A DNA stretch of 64,000 nucleotides from a virus (lineage: Duplodnaviria > Heunggongvirae > Uroviricota > Caudoviricetes), in IMG/VR virus record IMGVR_UViG_2909314774_000001. The stretch is one strand, 5' to 3'. Position 1 is the stretch's first letter. Each line of letters starts with the position of its first letter. The notes under the pieces are model-generated. The model was not told where the DNA came from. It did not search any database and saw only the letters and a list, made by a program, of their open reading frames with translations. Below, one piece after another: positions 7,014 through 23,319 of the stretch. The position numbers and the translations under genes were made by a program.

Positions 7014-8720
7014 ATGGAATCGATAGAAGTATTTTTAAAAAATTTTTTGGACTCAGATCATCGGGTTGCTGTCATAAAAGGAAATTGGGGAGTAGGTAAA
7101 ACGCATTATTGGAATAGCTTTTATACTAAACATTCTAAAAAATTAGATTTTAATGCATATTCATATGTTTCTTTGTTTGGAATAAATTCTATTGGAGACA
7201 TTAAAAAAGCTCTTTATCATTGTGCCACACCAATTAATGAAAAGAAATATAAAGAACTGATTTTATCTGAAACGGATCGAACTATGATTCGTTATAGAAA
7301 TGGGTTTTGGGGATGGTTGAAATACAACTCCTTGTCAAAATTTTTAATACATTTTGGAAAGAACGATTTTTTTGGGTTCAAAACTGATAATCTGCTGTCA
7401 TCTCTTGAGTATAAATTTGTTAATAATTATTTGGTTTGCATTGATGATATTGAACGAAAAGGTAGTGCGCTAGAAATTAAAGAGATTATGGGGGTAATTG
7501 ATGAGTTGGCAAGAAGAAAAAATTGCAAGGTTGTTCTAATATTAAATGAAGATAACTTACATGAAGAAACTGCACAACAACAGTTTTTAGAGTATAGAGA
7601 AAAAATAATTGATGTGGAAATAAAATACGATCCCACGCCTGAGAAAAACTTAAGAAAAGTTTTTTATGAGACTGACCCTGATTTTCTTTTGTTAAAAAAC
7701 CTAGTAAATGATTTAAACATCAAAAACATTAGAATATTAAATAAAATAAAATCATCTCTAGTTATATTTAGAGATGTGCTAAAGTTAGCAGAGGATAAGG
7801 TTAGAGAAAGTTTTATTAATAGATTGGTCTTATTTTCAGTGGTTTACTATTTTGGTGTTCCTAGCGTTGATTATGCTTCATTTAAGGAGTCAATCAAAAA
7901 TATACATGCATTCGACTATATGTTAGATGATAAAGATGAAAAGGAAGAAGTTAACTCTGTATATTCATTTGTTAATAGCCTTGATGTTATTTATGAACGA
8001 GCAGAAAGTGCTTTCGATGATGATATAGATTTTTACCTTAAGAACGGTTATGTTTCTTCTGAAAGCAATATTCTAAATATAATAAAAGAAAAAAATGAAC
8101 AATATAGAGATAATAGGGTTTTATGTGAGGTTTATAAAATTTGGGATGTTTTTAGAAACTCTTTTAAAGATAATGAATCAGAGTTTATTTTTCAAATTGA
8201 GCGCGTAATTAACGATAGTCTGTTGCGTATACCAATTGGACAGTTCGTAGGTTTAATAAATGTCCTAATTAAATTGGATAGAGATTGTAATAATATTATA
8301 GAGGCATATGCAGATGCTTTTGTTAATAAAGAAAATGCGTATGCTACATTTAATTCTTTGCGAGTAGAGATCTTCGGAAATGAAGAATTAGGTTTCAGAA
8401 TTGAAAAAAAATTGAAAGATAGAAATCCAGATGACTATAACTTAGATAAAATTATAAAAAAAATAGCTGGTGGAAGATTTAACCATAGTGATGTGAATAT
8501 TCTTAACAGTTTTTCTAAAGATGATTACGTAAACTGGATATTATCCTGTGATCAGGATGCTTTGAATTTAGTAGAAGAGACTATGCTCAAGTTCAAGGGT
8601 ATGCAACACCCGACAGACGAACAGAAGAGCATCACTGATAAAGCAATAGAAGCTTTGGAGGAAGTTGCTTCAAAATCAACACTTAATAAGCTGCGTGTTA
8701 ATAAAATACTCAATCATTAA
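7014..8720 (+). CDS. KAP-family P-loop NTPase (PifA-like)
   Basis: Walker A GNWGVGKT at residues 22-29 and Walker B LVCIDDIERK; the gene is markedly more AT-rich than its neighbours. Confidence 0.65.
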   Translation: MESIEVFLKNFLDSDHRVAVIKGNWGVGKTHYWNSFYTKHSKKLDFNAYSYVSLFGINSIGDIKKALYHCATPINEKKYKELILSETDRTMIRYRNGFWGWLKYNSLSKFLIHFGKNDFFGFKTDNLLSSLEYKFVNNYLVCIDDIERKGSALEIKEIMGVIDELARRKNCKVVLILNEDNLHEETAQQQFLEYREKIIDVEIKYDPTPEKNLRKVFYETDPDFLLLKNLVNDLNIKNIRILNKIKSSLVIFRDVLKLAEDKVRESFINRLVLFSVVYYFGVPSVDYASFKESIKNIHAFDYMLDDKDEKEEVNSVYSFVNSLDVIYERAESAFDDDIDFYLKNGYVSSESNILNIIKEKNEQYRDNRVLCEVYKIWDVFRNSFKDNESEFIFQIERVINDSLLRIPIGQFVGLINVLIKLDRDCNNIIEAYADAFVNKENAYATFNSLRVEIFGNEELGFRIEKKLKDRNPDDYNLDKIIKKIAGGRFNHSDVNILNSFSKDDYVNWILSCDQDALNLVEETMLKFKGMQHPTDEQKSITDKAIEALEEVASKSTLNKLRVNKILNH

Positions 8721-16504: not shown

Positions 16505-16591
16505 GGGGAGTTAGTCCGTAGGGGCAGCGGGGTAGACTGTAAATCTACTGTCATTGCGACTCGGGTGGTTCGACTCCATCACTCCCCACCA
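16505..16591 (+). tRNA. tRNA-Tyr (anticodon GTA), class II with long variable arm; D-arm non-canonical
   Basis: Acceptor GGGGAGT/ACTCCCC, anticodon arm GTAGA-CTGTAAA-TCTAC, T-loop TTCGACT, CCA encoded; the D-arm would not fold canonically by hand. Confidence 0.6.
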
Positions 16592-16671: not shown

Positions 16672-16762
16672 ACACAACAGGTAAGAGCATTGGGCGAATC
16701 GGCGATACTGACCACAAGCCCGTAAATCGATAGAGTCAGACCAGTGCTCTTACCGTTGTGAG
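16672..16762. repeat. Long imperfect hairpin C (candidate structured RNA)
   Basis: Arms CAACAGGTAAGAGCATTGG / CCAGTGCTCTTACCGTTG, ~47 nt loop; begins right after tRNA-Thr. Confidence 0.5.
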
Positions 16763-16807
16763 GAAGTGCAGCTCTTTGAAGCAACCAGAAGATAAGCATC
16801 TGGCTTC

Positions 16808-16892
16808 ACAACACAACGATAAGATCATTACGGTTAATCGTCGTTCATGTGCACAATGACTGGTCGAAAGGTAGTGATCTTACCGTTGTGAT
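16808..16892. repeat. Long imperfect hairpin D (candidate structured RNA)
   Basis: Arms CAACGATAAGATCA / TGATCTTACCGTTG, ~48 nt loop. Confidence 0.5.
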
Positions 16893-16990
16893 GAATGCAC
16901 AGGCTGATGTGCCGCAACTACAGTAGTGCGCGCTTTGCGGGGCTTGCTACAACCCTGTGTCGGAGTTCAGCACCGACCATCACAATAGCT

Positions 16991-17157: not shown

Positions 17158-17234
17158 ATAGACAATTACGGCAGACGTTCTTAACCATAGCTTGCTAACA
17201 TCCTAGCAACACTTTTTTCAGCGCAAAATTCAAA

Positions 17235-17254
17235 GGGGCTTCGGCCCCTTTTTT
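17235..17254. terminator. Intrinsic terminator, probably bidirectional
   Basis: GGGGC-TTCG-GCCCC followed by TTTTTT on the + strand, with a T-rich tract on the - strand as well; separates the tRNA cluster from the convergent gene at 17270-18532. Confidence 0.7.
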
Positions 17255-17269
17255 GTTGAACAGTGCAAT

Positions 17270-18532
17270 TTACTTTGCATAGTCGCCCAATTTTAATATT
17301 TCGCGCTTATATTCATTAACCATGCTACTGGATTCAGTATAAATTCGATTTAAAAGATTATCGTTATCTTTATTTTCATTTATCTTAATTAGTGCTAATT
17401 TATATTCATAGTCATCAAATGCCACAATTAAATGGTGGCCTGGGATTATATCTTCGTCACTCTTAAAGTATATATCTTCAAGTATGTAATCTAGTTGATT
17501 AGATTTTCTTTTCTCGATGTAATCTTCAGCCATAGCTATTACATCATTCCTGTCATTTAACCTGTTTTTTTCGGAAGGCACATCTTCGTAATGTTGCACG
17601 ATTGAACAACCAATAAGGCGTGGGATGTAAACGTCAAAATGAGTAACTCTATCATTCGCGGTTTTAAGTAGTTCCTCAAAGTAGTTTCTTACATGTAAAG
17701 GCAACTTCTCAAAGTAATCATTAATTATAGGAGAACAAGGAGTTTTATAATTCATAAGAACCGACGGTACGAGCTTTGGGTGTCGAAACATCCAGTCCCT
17801 TTTAACGTCCGATGGAACATAATAACTTTTAATGATATTATCAAAATAATTTATCATTCGAGATTTGAATATTTTGTTGAATCTAAGGTTTATGAATGTA
17901 TCCAGATAAGGCATATTTGAATAAGCATCATCAAAAAATATTTCATCATTGAAAAAATCATATTTATTCAATAAACAACACAGTTTTTCCGAATTAATAT
18001 GTTCACAATAATCGATTTTTAATCCAAAGATAGCAATGATCAACTTCATCTGAGGTGGGATTTTAAAAATTAATTGTGACACATACGCTCTTTTTTCCTT
18101 GAGACATTCCCCATCAATATAAAATGAACCATCCACATACTCAAATATATTAATAATATGCTTCACATACTGTATTACCTCATGCTGTCTTACCAATGGG
18201 TAATATAGTCTATGTAACTCATCGCTGTTTAAATTAATTTTGTGTTTATCGATAATTTGTTTTGCAAGAAGACATAACTCATCATGTTGATTTAATAAGG
18301 AATCAAACCATTGTTTAAATGCACTCTTTCGCATTTCGAACAATGATTCAGTTGTTAATTGAAGGGCTGAAAAAGCTGCTTTTGCACTTTTTCTCGCTTC
18401 GTAGGCATTCCATGCTGTTGCTATAAAAGCAAATGCTGTAGCCAATGTTCCAACAGTTTGACCATTTAAAACAACCCAATCCCAAAAAATGACGGTGAGC
18501 AGTAGTATAATAATGAAAATTAAAAAAGGCAT
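17270..18532 (-). CDS. Membrane-anchored protein of unknown function (420 aa), AT-rich island
   Basis: N-terminal hydrophobic helices (FLIFIIILLLTVIFWDWVVL; TLATAFAFIATAW) then a large Asn/Tyr/Lys/Phe-rich soluble domain; base composition far more AT-rich than flanking genes. Confidence 0.6.
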   Translation of the reverse strand: MPFLIFIIILLLTVIFWDWVVLNGQTVGTLATAFAFIATAWNAYEARKSAKAAFSALQLTTESLFEMRKSAFKQWFDSLLNQHDELCLLAKQIIDKHKINLNSDELHRLYYPLVRQHEVIQYVKHIINIFEYVDGSFYIDGECLKEKRAYVSQLIFKIPPQMKLIIAIFGLKIDYCEHINSEKLCCLLNKYDFFNDEIFFDDAYSNMPYLDTFINLRFNKIFKSRMINYFDNIIKSYYVPSDVKRDWMFRHPKLVPSVLMNYKTPCSPIINDYFEKLPLHVRNYFEELLKTANDRVTHFDVYIPRLIGCSIVQHYEDVPSEKNRLNDRNDVIAMAEDYIEKRKSNQLDYILEDIYFKSDEDIIPGHHLIVAFDDYEYKLALIKINENKDNDNLLNRIYTESSSMVNEYKREILKLGDYAK

Positions 18533-18706
18533 GTATGTATTTCACTCTACTAACTATAAAATATTAGGCTAATGTTAACCAAACAATGCCTTAATTAATA
18601 GATTGATCGAGGCTTTAATAGCTTTATAATGCAGATTGCAAAGATAAGTATGCACACACCTATCTTCTTTGTAAGTAAAGTTGCATATCAATTCTATGAG
18701 GTAACA

Positions 18707-18952
18707 ATGACAATCACTATCTACGGACGAGATAACTGCTCATACTGCAAACGTGCGGTCGAGCTGGCGAAGCAACTAAAGGGACATGGCTACGGTGATT
18801 ATGAGTACATCGACATCACTACTGCCGGTATCGACAAGGAAAAACTTAGTGAAATTGTTGGTAAACCGGTAGAGACTATCCCCCAAGTACTGATCGATGG
18901 TCAACCGATTGGCGGATACACAGAACTGGCTGCATACGTCAGCACCCTCTGA
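18707..18952 (+). CDS. Glutaredoxin (NrdH/Grx-like)
   Basis: Thioredoxin-fold N-terminus MTITIYGRDNCSYCKRA with CxxC active site; start moved to ATG 18707, with GAGG upstream. Confidence 0.75.
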   Translation: MTITIYGRDNCSYCKRAVELAKQLKGHGYGDYEYIDITTAGIDKEKLSEIVGKPVETIPQVLIDGQPIGGYTELAAYVSTL

Positions 18953-18958
18953 TTTTAA

Positions 18959-18981
18959 CGGCTCACAGGAGCCGTTTTTTA
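18959..18981 (+). terminator. Intrinsic terminator
   Basis: CGGCTC-ACAG-GAGCCG followed by TTTTTT. Confidence 0.65.
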
Positions 18982-19163
18982 TTCCCACCAAACTCACTCC
19001 TGTTTCCCTTAAAATTCAAAAAACAACGTCTAAATGATTCCATACCTACTATGTATGGAATCATTGCTGAAAATGAGTTACTTTTACTCTTGATCCTATA
19101 AGAATCTATGCCTAATATACTGTTTACTTATACAGTGCATCGGCGTAACTCGGTGATTGTCAT

Positions 19164-20267
19164 ATGAAAAATAGCTTTGACAGAGCACGCGCTGCGGAGA
19201 ACACCTCAAAAGAGGCGATAGAGTATCTCGAAAGAGCATCTCAAATGCAGGCCGTTATGATCTCCCAGGTCAGCAATGACATGAGATTCTCGGACGCATT
19301 CATGTTATTCACTCGCTTATCTCTGCTGATAACCAGACGTCGGCCAGAGATCGCTGTTCATTGTATTTTGATACATGTTTTGCCGCACATTGCCGATGTA
19401 AAAGTAAGTGACATTAATAGGTTCATGGTGAACCAACTGGTCAACCCACTAATACTGGATGGCAAAATTGTTATGGGCCGCCGCGTTTTCTCTCTGATGA
19501 AGCAGTTCCTTAGCTGGTGCGCCTTCCAGGGGATGATAGACGTGTCACCGTTAAACGATATGTCACTTAACAAAGTTGCCGGTGGCGCAAAGCCCACACC
19601 TCGCGAGCGGAAGCTGACCGACGCAGAGGTATGGGTGTTCTGGAATATATGGGACTACTTCAATGTGTGTGCTGGTACAAAATGGGCGGCCAGGCTATGT
19701 CTTGTATCCGCAAGACGACCTGACGAAGTACTGCGGGCTAAAAAAAGTGAGTTCAATCTTAAGCGTGGGGTTTGGAATCAAGGCAAGAGGAACAAATCTG
19801 CCCGTGAGCATTCTCTGCCTTTAAGCTCATTAATGCGCACTTGTATTGAAGAGTTGTTCGAATATGGTAAAGACAGCCAGTGGCTCGTGCCTTCGAATAA
19901 AAAAATCGGGAAAGACCTTCCTATGTCTAAAGTGGCAATAGCCCAGGCATTACGTCGTATTCTGGAACGACCAGAACTGATGGAGCTTGAGCCATTTACA
20001 CCCCGAGATTTGCGCCGTACTGCGCGTAGTTACTTCCCAGCATTAGGCATAAGCCAGGAGGTATCACGTAAAATCATGAACCACAGTCTTGAGGGGATAG
20101 ATCGGGTCTACGACCGGCACGATTATATGGACGAGATGCGAGACGCCTTAGAAAGTTTCTCGACGTACATCGCATCAATCGTAGAGCAACCGGATTTAGA
20201 CGAAATTGACCACAAATTTAAGGGAGATCGTCTATCAACAGAGCTTATTCGTGTAAATTTTTCATAG
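19164..20267 (+). CDS. Tyrosine recombinase (phage-integrase family) lacking an N-terminal arm-binding domain
   Basis: Core-binding and catalytic domains with R...H..R...Y-type segments (LVSARRPDEV..., ...RDLRRTARSYF..., HSLEGIDRVYDRHDY); nothing upstream resembles an arm-binding domain. Confidence 0.7.
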   Translation: MKNSFDRARAAENTSKEAIEYLERASQMQAVMISQVSNDMRFSDAFMLFTRLSLLITRRRPEIAVHCILIHVLPHIADVKVSDINRFMVNQLVNPLILDGKIVMGRRVFSLMKQFLSWCAFQGMIDVSPLNDMSLNKVAGGAKPTPRERKLTDAEVWVFWNIWDYFNVCAGTKWAARLCLVSARRPDEVLRAKKSEFNLKRGVWNQGKRNKSAREHSLPLSSLMRTCIEELFEYGKDSQWLVPSNKKIGKDLPMSKVAIAQALRRILERPELMELEPFTPRDLRRTARSYFPALGISQEVSRKIMNHSLEGIDRVYDRHDYMDEMRDALESFSTYIASIVEQPDLDEIDHKFKGDRLSTELIRVNFS

Positions 20268-20648
20268 AGACTTTATGGCCTCAACAACCTTTTGTGATGC
20301 GCCTTTCTCTTTACCGAATCGCTCGTTATATGCAGCAAGAACCTGTTTTTCGTCCTCGTTAAGAGGAGCAGTGCCTTCTTTGTATAAAAATGCTGCGAGT
20401 TCGGGTTGGCGTTCTTCCAGCACCATCATCATAAGACGACTTGGCTCAATACCCAGTGCCAGCGCCAGCGGACGAACCTTATCGATAGGCAAAGGAATTT
20501 TGCCGCTTTTAATTAAAGAAAGGTTGTTGGCGTTTTTATACCCAATTGTTTTGGCTATCTGGGCCTGGCTCATAGGTGAGGATTCAATCAACCCTGCGAT
20601 AAAAGCAGCGTAGCGACTTTCTATAAATTCAATCTTGTTATCAGACAT
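20262..20648 (-). CDS. XRE-family helix-turn-helix transcriptional regulator
   Basis: HTH segment SQAQIAKTIGYKNANNLSLIKSGK; divergent from the downstream + strand genes; its promoter region carries a GGTAAGTGCTTACC palindrome. Confidence 0.7.
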   Translation of the reverse strand: MSDNKIEFIESRYAAFIAGLIESSPMSQAQIAKTIGYKNANNLSLIKSGKIPLPIDKVRPLALALGIEPSRLMMMVLEERQPELAAFLYKEGTAPLNEDEKQVLAAYNERFGKEKGASQKVVEAIKSL

Positions 20649-21210: not shown

Positions 21211-23319
21211 ATGTCTAAAAAACGTTCCATCAAAGAGGTTCAGGACTTCCGTGACAGTGTAAAACGAGTAGTCGCTCTCCTTTCAGGTAAAAACATCCCT
21301 GTTGCAGAACGAGGGGACGACGCTTATGTACGCTATAACGATGATGGAGAGCCAATTCTCGTAAACATCCCATCAATCCCGGATAACGCAACACCGGCAT
21401 TGATGAATGCTGTGCGCGGATTTCTCGATCATGAGGTTGCTCACATTTTGTTTACCGATATTCGTGTGTCCAACAAAATGAGAGAAAAAGGACGCGTTCC
21501 TTCCTGGTCGCTATGGAATGCCTTAGAAGACGTGTTCATCGAGCGAAAAATGGGTCAGGTCTTTAACGGAACAAGACGTAATCTGATGGCAACTCAGCGC
21601 CTTATAATCGAAAAAGTCTTTAAACCAAAGGCTTCAGAGGCTATTGCTTATTGTGGCAAAGATCAGCGCGCGCTTTTTCTAAACTTCTTTCTCTGTCCGG
21701 TTGTAAGAGCCTGGGATGGCCAAGCACCGTTCGTAGATTTCATGGATGAATATTGGCCTGTCATTGAGAAACCAATTTCATTATTAAAAGAACATGGTAT
21801 CGATGTGGCCGTGCGTAACATGTCTTGCACCGAGGATTGTGTAAAGGTGGCTGCGACCATAGCTAAGATCCTCAAAGACACTGAAAGTGAAAGCAAAGGT
21901 AAGGAGTCAGCTCCGGGAAAAACTTCCGATCCTTCAGACGCTGACCAGACGGATGCCTCTGGAGAAAACAATGAAGACAACGAAGATCATGAGACACCCT
22001 CATCGTTAGATAATCACAAATCTATTAAATCAGAGTCACATAGTAAGCACAAACATGATAATAACGACAGTGATGATTCAGATAATCCTGAATCATCAGA
22101 AACAATATTCGATGATACAGAAAATGATAAAGCGGTATCAGATTCTGATGCTTCTGATAACGCGGCGTCAGAATCATTAACCGCTGACCACGAAAAAAGA
22201 AAAACGACAGAAGACGGCTCTTCAGACATTCCAACTCCGTCAAAAATGAGTCTGGAAGAGGCTTTAGAGGAGTTGGATAGCATGGAAGATGAAGTCGGAG
22301 GCATGACAGAAGATGCGCTATCCGAAACGATTAAAAGCGAGTTAACAGAAAGCTCGAAAAGCGAATACAGGCCATACAATCGCTCATACGACTTCATCGG
22401 CTCGATTGATCAGGCAGAAGCCCATATCAAACGGCTTATTAAAACATTCTCCGATATTGATTTAGGTGGATATCCAATCAGCCGTTATCGCATCGTTCCT
22501 GAAGGCAACCAACTCTTCGACAAATATATTGAAAAGCACCTTTCGTCAGGTGTTTCGTCGACGCTGGCAAAAGACCTGGAACGTGCAATAGCAAGCAGAA
22601 ACAGAGTTCAGTTTATACCTGGCCAGCGTCGGGGGCGCATTCATGGTTCAAGTATCTACAGATTAACAATGAATGATGATCGCGTGTTTCGTAAAAAAGA
22701 AGAATCTAAAGCCGTTAACGCCTGTGTTCAACAAGTGATTGATTTATCGGGTTCAATGAGTGGCGAAACGATAAAACTAGCTCTTGCAAGTGCATATACC
22801 ATCGCCGATGCACTTGATCGAATAAATGTTCCCAACATTATCACCGGCTTCACTACATTTGGCAGTCATATGGCAGCAGGAGAACTTAAGGCTATCAAAT
22901 ATGAGTTCTCTCGCTTTGAATCTTTAATGCTACCTATCATCAAAAATTGGAATGAAAAAGCAAATTCTCGCGAAGTTCGCTCACGTATGGGGTGCGTAGG
23001 CTACACATTCCCACTTCTTAATAACGTGGATGGTGAAAGCATAGCCAGCCTTGCATCGTTATTTTCCGGTCGCTTGGAGGACAGGAAGATCATGCTTGTT
23101 CTGAGCGATGGCGCGCCGTGGGCTGTTGGGAGAGGTTTTGACGCCCATTTGCGTTCGGTTACGAAGCAAATTGAAACGCAGACTGACATTGATTTGATGG
23201 CAATTGGCATCATGACTGATGCACCGGAGAGATTTTACGCAAATCATGCCCTGGTAACTAGTGTTGATAGTCTTGGTTCATCTGTAGTTACTGAACTATC
23301 TCGTATCATTTTGAAGTAA
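21211..23319 (+). CDS. von Willebrand factor A domain protein (CobT-like) with long acidic Ser/Asp-rich disordered insert
   Basis: MIDAS motif DLSGSMSG in the C-terminal half; central ~110 residue low-complexity acidic segment. Confidence 0.65.
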   Translation: MSKKRSIKEVQDFRDSVKRVVALLSGKNIPVAERGDDAYVRYNDDGEPILVNIPSIPDNATPALMNAVRGFLDHEVAHILFTDIRVSNKMREKGRVPSWSLWNALEDVFIERKMGQVFNGTRRNLMATQRLIIEKVFKPKASEAIAYCGKDQRALFLNFFLCPVVRAWDGQAPFVDFMDEYWPVIEKPISLLKEHGIDVAVRNMSCTEDCVKVAATIAKILKDTESESKGKESAPGKTSDPSDADQTDASGENNEDNEDHETPSSLDNHKSIKSESHSKHKHDNNDSDDSDNPESSETIFDDTENDKAVSDSDASDNAASESLTADHEKRKTTEDGSSDIPTPSKMSLEEALEELDSMEDEVGGMTEDALSETIKSELTESSKSEYRPYNRSYDFIGSIDQAEAHIKRLIKTFSDIDLGGYPISRYRIVPEGNQLFDKYIEKHLSSGVSSTLAKDLERAIASRNRVQFIPGQRRGRIHGSSIYRLTMNDDRVFRKKEESKAVNACVQQVIDLSGSMSGETIKLALASAYTIADALDRINVPNIITGFTTFGSHMAAGELKAIKYEFSRFESLMLPIIKNWNEKANSREVRSRMGCVGYTFPLLNNVDGESIASLASLFSGRLEDRKIMLVLSDGAPWAVGRGFDAHLRSVTKQIETQTDIDLMAIGIMTDAPERFYANHALVTSVDSLGSSVVTELSRIILK

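Follow-up and report, generated by a model that had tools for sequence, protein, structure and literature searches.

What does a single, strongly AT-rich gene do on the opposite strand to the genes around it in a tailed-phage genome? The question is raised by a minus-strand open reading frame (ORF) at positions 17270–18532 of a 64,000-nucleotide stretch (hereafter, the window) of IMG/VR virus record IMGVR_UViG_2909314774_000001 (Caudoviricetes). According to the ORF listing, it is 1,263 nt long, starts with ATG and encodes 420 amino acid residues. An identical protein is deposited as WP_001718056.1 and annotated as a 'hypothetical protein'. A sequence-only reading, made without database searches, had described the product as a membrane-anchored protein that could not be placed in any family. 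The analysis presented here relates the protein to the putAbiC superfamily and makes it moderately probable, as far as sequence comparison can tell, that the gene is an anti-phage gene.

The ORF is intact in 38 complete Escherichia coli genomes, and the full 420 codons are kept in all alleles with 83–98% protein identity. Compared with the E. albertii allele, the dN/dS ratio is 0.33 (dN 0.067, dS 0.20), with values of 0.26 for the N-terminal half and 0.36 for the C-terminal half; dN is also higher in the C-terminal half. The start MP(F/V/I)L is common to all homologues aligned with the window protein. Because the ORF is intact in 38 genomes and its dN/dS is approximately 0.33, the comparison of alleles indicates that it is a real coding gene under selection.

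Relationship to the putAbiC superfamily

The window protein matched no model in Pfam or PADLOC even at E ≤ 10, and none in NCBIfam. When it was tested against PF16872 (putAbiC; gathering score, 22 bits) by itself, there was again no match at E ≤ 10. It matched PHROG 18168, an unannotated family of unknown function, with an E value of 2e-217. Two paralogues that occupy the same genomic slot (described below) scored 21.7 and 18.0 bits against PF16872, narrowly under the threshold.

Seven close homologues were combined into a profile, with which 1.84 billion representative proteins were searched exhaustively by HMMER (E ≤ 0.001). The search returned 66 representatives, indicating a small family. 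The 51 full-length members were aligned, and each was scanned against Pfam and PADLOC. PF16872 was matched by 38 of the 51 (best E = 1.4e-11), and the PADLOC models of AbiC and AbiP (PDLC02343 / PDLC02351) were matched by seven and four of them, respectively. Two members, P0024 and P0028, match the query profile over full length (E = 1e-36 and 5e-30) and, with 32.7 and 36.2 bits, respectively, lie above the Pfam gathering score. When the window protein was compared by BLASTP with P0047, which scores 34.7 bits with PF16872, the E value was 7e-20 over residues 26–238, and tblastn of P0047 against 7.3 Gb of plasmids recovered the AbiC-like window gene at 1e-7. The close subfamily was also compared by hhalign with seven putAbiC proteins, six of which are above the Pfam threshold and one of which is only annotated as putAbiC. 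The resulting alignment has a probability of 99.9% (E = 6e-32) and extends over 265 columns, corresponding to residues 16–288. Toward the lactococcal proteins, P0028 matches the PADLOC AbiC model at 4.5e-6, and a single segment of P0031 matches both AbiC (1.3e-6) and AbiP (2e-4). A word-indexed profile search gave no further named relatives.

Given the homology through these intermediates, we consider it almost certain that the window protein belongs, as a divergent member, to the putAbiC superfamily, of which lactococcal AbiC and AbiP are also part, though the direct hidden Markov model test fails. The inability of the sequence-only reading to assign a family is matched by the empty direct searches, but the putAbiC family is reached via intermediate sequences. 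That reading had also named clear homology to a housekeeping phage protein as evidence that would speak against it; the remote-homology search gave putAbiC instead.

The HEPN RNase family Abi_C/AbiJ (PF14355), whose name is easily confused with that of AbiC, was considered and rejected: the window protein has no Pfam match to it and no R...H pair of the R-phi-x(3-5)-H motif. The literature on 'AbiC' in two papers concerns this unrelated HEPN domain. No mention of PF16872, putAbiC or WP_001718056 was found in the literature searched.

Membrane anchor, conserved core and variable C-terminal half

Two hydrophobic segments lie at the N-terminus (Table 1). Transmembrane segment 1 (TM1) is strong, with a Kyte-Doolittle 19-residue mean of up to 2.83, and TM2 is weaker (hydropathy of 1.3–1.45). 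Within TM2, Thr32, Thr39 and Ala43 are conserved in 71–90% of family members. Close family members have two TM segments, like AbiC, and distant members have one, like AbiP. A K/R-rich stretch, EARKSAKAA, follows directly after TM2, and because of it the remaining approximately 370 residues are predicted by the positive-inside rule to be cytoplasmic. Hydropathy, the positive-inside rule and the helices of the structure model (see below) all agree with the N-terminal TM helices and large cytoplasmic domain of the sequence-only reading.

Conservation is focused on TM2, the juxtamembrane collar and residues ~60–200. The collar, ATAWNAYEARKSAKAA, is invariant even among relatives that are merely 32% identical overall. 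Tyr122, Phe193 and Phe194 are invariant in all 51 members, and Phe72, Leu79, Leu80, His83, Leu130, Ile158, Ala167 and Leu188 are conserved in at least 90% of them. The core signature Y...L...I..A...LL...FF is present where it is expected, C-terminal to the TM and stalk regions. Nearly all conserved columns are hydrophobic or aromatic, and no catalytic-looking residue constellation was found among those of the 51-member alignment.

From residue 200 onward, the mean top-residue frequency drops to approximately 0.2, compared with 0.5–0.6 in the core, and many distant members, which are 450–495 residues long, align only to positions 1–200. For these two reasons, the C-terminal half appears to be either exchanged or diverging very fast, and we propose that it is a specificity or sensor module.

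The AlphaFold2 (AF2) model built from the 51-sequence alignment has a predicted local distance difference test score (pLDDT) of 90.7 and a predicted template modelling score (pTM) of 0.78; an earlier run with seven close sequences (pLDDT of 61.6) was set aside. In the model, a TM hairpin is followed by a long helix (residues 24–96) running out of TM2, a helical bundle that contains the putAbiC core, and a C-terminal helical region with three short strands. Foldseek searches found no match to the model at E ≤ 0.001 in the PDB or in BFVD, and a sequence profile search of the PDB gave nothing below E = 0.046. Nor did the fold searches reveal a known nucleic-acid-binding fold, and the protein has no recognisable enzymatic fold or catalytic motif.

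A variable cargo slot in SSU5-like phage-plasmids

The window DNA is 94–98% identical to Escherichia phages Cyrano and CMS-2020a, and Salmonella phage SSU5 is more distant. The gene region is 100% identical in non-mobilizable E. coli plasmids of ~110 kb, such as pMTY18780-3. Based on the identity to these phages and plasmids, the window is identified as an SSU5/pHCM2-like E. coli phage-plasmid. The flank of the gene is present in 211 of 5,426 complete E. coli genomes, where it is always plasmid-borne. Only 38 of the 211 have the AbiC-like gene and 173 lack it, as do the phages Cyrano, CMS-2020a and SSU5. The gene was not found at the DNA or protein level (tblastn) in a collection of 50,697 phage records.

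BLASTN alignments with five relatives end at 17252–17255, at the end of a hairpin, and resume at 18695–18707, just before the start of grxA. Because the same two breakpoints recur in five relatives, the segment between tRNA-Ser and grxA (17256–18695) is a discrete site of cargo exchange. In the window, the AbiC-like gene is the only ORF in this slot. The contents are swapped among phage-plasmids whose flanks are 95–100% identical. In Cyrano and pAMPD1, the slot contains a Gp49-family gene alone. In the E. coli plasmid unnamed920 (L003, 1262–3321), it holds a minus-strand pair that encodes AbiGi (PF10899, E = 9e-25) and a 403-residue partner. This partner failed to match any AbiGii model and only weakly matches HSDR_N_2; it may be a non-canonical AbiG partner. 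In E. coli p899037_3 (L004, 1381–2755), the slot is occupied by two plus-strand genes for products of 262 and 184 residues. The 262-residue protein matches the PADLOC models of PDC-M68A, SduA and endonuclease effectors of the cyclic-oligonucleotide-based anti-phage signalling system (CBASS) type, with E values down to 6e-25, and no family match was found for the 184-residue partner; the cassette may represent an uncharacterised two-gene defence system.

In two further relatives, the slot holds a paralogue of the window gene. One, in another E. coli relative (pEC00678_4; WP_169329645.1), encodes a 432-residue minus-strand protein that is 31% identical to the window protein. The other, on a Klebsiella SSU5-like plasmid, also runs antisense to the genes around it, with its 3′ end directly at the same tRNA-Ser terminator. 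At the DNA level, the ORF aligns with the Klebsiella paralogue only at 18375–18432, which encodes the juxtamembrane part.

The sequence-only reading had suggested a common landing site for accessory cargo. The differing contents of the slot among near-identical phage-plasmids bear this out, and with the allele in only 38 of 211 relatives, the uniform conservation that it had regarded as contrary evidence is not the case. From these comparisons, the tRNA-Ser/grxA slot appears to behave as a clean defence-cargo hotspot. Like the P2 tin/old locus, the P4 hotspot and phage morons, it has fixed borders between conserved genes, and its cargo, known defence genes among it, is AT-rich, transcribed independently and mutually exclusive. 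Unlike the P2 and P4 loci, it runs from a tRNA-Ser terminator to grxA and belongs to SSU5-supergroup phage-plasmids. No description of this slot was found in the literature, and a preprint that lists defence systems in SSU5 phage-plasmids includes neither the tRNA-Ser/grxA locus nor AbiC (10.1101/2025.09.12.675607).

The gene itself has the properties of a moron, namely presence or absence at fixed borders, a deviant GC content and its own terminator; its promoter is weakly supported. The GC content of the ORF is 31.5% (28% at third codon positions), compared with 45.5% for the whole window, and a 1-kb GC profile of the 64 kb contains just two troughs this low, at 7–9 kb and 17–19 kb. On one side of the gene are plus-strand genes for an ATP-dependent DNA ligase, small ORFs and tRNAs Asn, Tyr, Thr and Ser; on the other side, also on the plus strand, are the GrxA glutaredoxin, whose real start is the ATG at 18707, and a tyrosine recombinase. 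After these, a helix-turn-helix regulator at 20262–20648 is the next gene on the minus strand. The strong AT-richness, the antisense orientation and the proximity to tRNAs and a tyrosine recombinase had all been pointed out from the letters alone and are upheld by the composition and by the ORF and tRNA annotation.

At the left border, the terminator scan detected a G+C-rich hairpin, AAAGGGGC-TTCG-GCCCCTTT, followed by a T-run on the plus strand. Read on the minus strand, the hairpin is followed by TTTGAATTTT and lies 15 nt beyond the stop codon of the AbiC-like gene. Because of the T-run on one strand and TTTGAATTTT on the other, the hairpin plausibly works in both directions. The sequence-only reading had the gene bracketed by a bidirectional terminator; the bidirectionality is plausible, but the hairpin lies only on one side, at the 3′ end. 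On the 5′ side, a relaxed scan gave a promoter candidate (Table 1) that a stricter scan did not recover, and we assign it low confidence.

Genomic settings of relatives

Family members are found on SSU5-like plasmids of Escherichia (59), Klebsiella (35), Enterobacter (18), Salmonella and Pantoea. One relative lies beside ddrB/darA in a P1-like phage-plasmid (L008, 8001–9317). A P2-like prophage, apparently rearranged, has another between its gpA and portal genes (L017, 9001–10407), reportedly the position of the P2 tin/old defence hotspot (Rousset et al. 2022). The same prophage also carries an Eco47II-type restriction-modification pair. Further relatives are antisense within the transfer genes of an integrative and conjugative element (ICE) and beside the colicin operon of a colicin plasmid. 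Every relative with a contig long enough to show its neighbourhood is on a mobile element.

Comparison with characterised Abi proteins

AbiC (1992) and AbiP (2004) are classical abortive-infection systems. Lactococcal AbiC has approximately 344 residues, compared with 420 here. Members of the AbiC/P group have one (AbiP) or two (AbiC) TM helices and a helical soluble part (PMC13064643), and the window protein fits this description according to hydropathy and the AF2 model. AbiC of Lactococcus lactis (Prf; plasmid pTN20) has two N-terminal TM helices and an all-helical domain without assignable function, and like the window protein it is a single-gene system on mobile DNA (PMC13064643). The two differ in host, which is Gram-positive for AbiC and enterobacterial for the window protein, and they have no direct sequence match. 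AbiP of L. lactis is also membrane-anchored with a cytoplasmic soluble part, and the core of the relative P0031 matches its model as described above; unlike the window protein, it is much shorter and has one TM helix. PdpSau of a Staphylococcus aureus prophage is reported to be structurally similar to AbiP (PMC10127798). It resembles the window protein as a prophage-encoded, membrane-anchored single protein, which mediates abortive infection of lytic phages, so that a temperate element protects its host. It differs in having one TM helix and a positively charged OB-like C-terminus, where the AF2 model of the window protein is helical.

Both AbiC and AbiP act after DNA entry, with phage DNA and transcripts present (PMC13064643). 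In the presence of AbiC, less major capsid protein is made and DNA replication is unaffected; AbiP depends on its TM anchor, binds RNA more readily than single-stranded DNA and deregulates the early-to-late switch (PMC13064643). AbiP is toxic when co-expressed with the phage major tail protein, to which escape mutations map (PMC12184496). A 2026 review found that no function could be assigned to AbiC or AbiP from structure.

The closest annotated proteins are those of PF16872, such as the 440-residue protein of Pantoea deleyi (WP_128085368.1). Like the window protein, they have a TM anchor at the N-terminus, a stalk formed by a long helix, and the Y...FF core; their lengths are similar (~420–495 residues), and all are on mobile elements. 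Unlike them, the window protein and its closest subfamily are below the Pfam model, and the C-terminal 130–220 residues of the window protein have no detectable similarity to most putAbiC members. Annotated putAbiC proteins, the Pantoea protein being one example, already show the same design, in which a TM anchor is followed by the putAbiC core and a long tail (~430 residues in total). What is new is a divergent member of the AbiC/P or putAbiC single-protein Abi systems and not the design.

Possible function and alternative explanations

We favour, with a fair degree of confidence, the interpretation that the gene is a moron-type accessory gene encoding a single-protein abortive-infection system of the AbiC/AbiP (putAbiC) superfamily. 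An anti-phage role is suggested because the putAbiC homology, the AbiC/P architecture, the defence-cargo slot, the moron features and the analogy with AbiP all point in this direction. The sequence-only reading had considered the protein a plausible superinfection-exclusion or Abi factor. This proposal gains from the AbiC/AbiP homology and from the AbiGi and PDC-M68A/SduA-like genes found in the same slot, and it still derives from sequence analysis.

If the gene is such an Abi system, the protein would be made in the lysogen and seated in the inner membrane. The variable C-terminal half would recognise a product of the superinfecting phage, and the conserved module, consisting of TM2, the juxtamembrane helix and the putAbiC core, would then stop the infection. 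One conceivable route is that phage RNA, gene expression or the production of late proteins is disturbed at the membrane, in line with the AbiP and AbiC phenotypes; another is oligomerisation via the small-residue face of TM2, leading to loss of membrane integrity. As a result, the lysogen population would be protected, and the phage-plasmid with it. We hold any particular effector step to be tentative.

In a more specific, and rather unlikely, version, the enterobacterial ~420-residue branch would be a distinct immune sensor, modular and consisting of a single protein, that serves phage-plasmids and prophages; a phage structural protein would trigger its oligomerisation and membrane failure. 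The protein may then join a membrane effector, made up of the small-residue TM2, the putAbiC core and the invariant AWNAYEARKSAKAA collar, to C-terminal recognition domains that are exchanged rapidly.

Several points weigh against the favoured Abi interpretation. The putAbiC link is transitive, and the window protein has no direct match in Pfam, PADLOC or NCBIfam. The link to lactococcal AbiC and AbiP is weak (E of approximately 1e-6 to 1e-4) and was obtained with relatives only. The Gp49-only slots show that the AbiC-like gene is dispensable, and given the weak evidence for a promoter, expression in the lysogen is putative. No phenotype of any enterobacterial or other Gram-negative member is reported in the literature searched. 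The mechanisms of AbiC and AbiP are unsolved and may differ from each other (PMC13064643), and in Lactococcus, none of the phages tried was restricted by an AbiC-like protein with 38% identity to AbiC (PMC11381338).

Some of these points also speak for a non-defence accessory role, such as lysogenic conversion, envelope physiology or competition among plasmids and mobile elements, in which case the putAbiC homology would reflect shared ancestry. That no Gram-negative member has a verified function in the literature searched would fit this explanation, as would the inactivity of the AbiC-like gene in Lactococcus (PMC11381338), the relatives located among ICE transfer genes and beside a colicin operon, and the lack of catalytic motifs and fold matches in the window protein. 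However, the slot and the other contexts are typical positions of defence cargo, and the combination of conserved and hypervariable modules under relaxed purifying selection fits an arms-race gene. We consider a non-defence role unlikely.

The protein might alternatively block DNA entry or an early step at the inner membrane without killing the cell, similarly to P22 SieA, T4 Imm or lactococcal Sie2009. Such superinfection exclusion (Sie) is compatible with a membrane-anchored protein encoded by a moron-like gene of a temperate element, and TM2 with the juxtamembrane segment is indeed the most conserved part of the protein. Its homologues AbiC and AbiP, however, act post-entry on late proteins or the transcription switch (PMC13064643). 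Moreover, a cytoplasmic location is predicted for the domain of ~370 residues, most known Sie proteins are small, and no similarity to a Sie family was found in Pfam, PHROGs or fold searches. We therefore judge this explanation to be distinctly unlikely.

It is highly improbable that the protein is the toxin of an addiction or toxin-antitoxin module stabilising the plasmid prophage. Low-copy plasmid prophages could use such a module, membrane-inserting toxins exist, and the neighbouring slot of the Klebsiella relative carries a YafO toxin; but the window slot has a single gene, and no partner ORF, tandem repeats or Rfam RNA (tRNAs aside) were found there. At 420 residues, the protein is also far larger than membrane toxins of this type, and many stable relatives lack the gene. 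That the gene encodes a housekeeping phage protein (for lysis, morphogenesis or replication) and is AT-rich by chance has nothing in its favour but the location in a phage genome. This explanation is effectively refuted by the E. coli relatives with these flanks, of which 173 of 211 lack the gene, and by the empty tblastn search of phage records; a holin or lysis role in particular was rejected on account of the size and the presence/absence pattern.

Coordinates and further features of the window

The features of the locus are collected in Table 1.

Table 1. Positions in the window of the AbiC-like gene, its protein segments and the surrounding elements
Feature	Position	Strand	Evidence
Variable cargo slot of SSU5-like phage-plasmids, here with the AbiC-like gene and its 5′ region	17256..18695	.	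BLASTN breakpoints in five relatives; alternative contents
Coding sequence, 420 residues plus stop; divergent membrane-anchored protein of the putAbiC / AbiC-AbiP superfamily (almost certain)	17270..18532	-	ORF listing; identical locus in pMTY18780-3; family links
Whole region homologous to bona fide putAbiC proteins, residues 16–288	17669..18487	-	hhalign; BLASTP to P0047
TM helix 1 (predicted), residues 2–22	18467..18529	-	Kyte-Doolittle; helical in AF2
TM helix 2 (predicted), residues ~27–44, small-residue-rich (T32, A35, A38, T39, A40, A43)	18401..18454	-	Hydropathy; TM segment kept in nearly all members
Juxtamembrane motif ATAWNAYEARKSAKAA, residues 38–53	18374..18421	-	Invariant alignment columns; K/R cluster marks the cytoplasmic face
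putAbiC core, residues ~118–199	17936..18181	-	PF16872 matches equivalent residues of paralogues; conservation profile
Hypervariable C-terminal half, residues 200–420; helices and a small alpha/beta subdomain	17273..17935	-	Conservation profile; AF2 secondary structure
Hairpin terminator, plausibly common to the tRNA-Ser transcript (+) and the AbiC-like gene (-); left border of the slot	17232..17251	.	Terminator scan; minus-strand reading; homology end at 17252–17255
Weak sigma-70-like promoter candidate TTGGTT-18-TATAGT; -10 hexamer ends 20 nt before ATG	18553..18582	-	Relaxed scan, 8/12 matches

A second variable slot is located between grxA and the integrase gene (window ~18937–19015). It is empty in the window, and relatives break homology there. 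In Cyrano, it contains a 184-residue minus-strand ORF, and in plasmid unnamed920 a 307-residue ORF (L003, 4049–4972). The Klebsiella relative (L012) has a cluster of colicin-immunity and YafO-toxin genes at this site, and pMTY18780-3 has a whole chaperone-usher fimbrial operon (L002, 9008–13601). A terminator-like hairpin lies at 18957–18976. Upstream of the integrase gene, a 34-nt sequence (19033–19066) aligns with its own reverse complement in every relative (inverted self-hits of 91%); this inverted-repeat sequence may be a recombinase site, a regulatory site or a terminator. On the other side of the AbiC-like gene, the tRNA-Tyr at 16505–16591 has no counterpart in the annotated Cyrano cluster, which consists of Asn, Thr and Ser only, and 16692–16960 also differs among relatives; for these reasons, the tRNA array itself is variable.

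The other AT-rich island (7014–8720, plus strand; 29–33% GC) encodes a 568-residue protein with a KAP-family P-loop NTPase domain (PF07693, 25.8 bits) and a weak nSTAND3 match. The gene directly follows a ParA-like gene and its small partner, and it is probably a second accessory or defence-type cargo. Farther downstream, at 21211–23319 (plus strand), is a gene for a 702-residue CobT-like protein with a von Willebrand factor A (VWA) domain (PF06213 and PF11775) and a long acidic, serine-rich low-complexity insert at residues ~225–345. This protein is kept across SSU5-like elements, in which it has various cobalamin-biosynthesis annotations.

Implications

By itself, the AbiC-like gene is an incremental finding and not a new kind of system. 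Its branch of the AbiC/P superfamily is a common cargo of clinically widespread enterobacterial phage-plasmids: approximately one-fifth of the E. coli SSU5-like elements (38/211) carry the window allele, and more carry paralogues. The models of Pfam, PADLOC and NCBIfam all miss this branch, and defence censuses of SSU5-like elements therefore probably undercount it. The gene offers an entry to the AbiC/P mechanism that is tractable in E. coli, and the sharply bounded tRNA-Ser/grxA slot could be mined for further systems. If the branch were indeed a modular sensor, the AbiC/AbiP class would, after 30 years, have a mechanism, one open to genetics in E. coli, and tRNA-Ser/grxA would be defined as a defence hotspot of SSU5-supergroup phage-plasmids.

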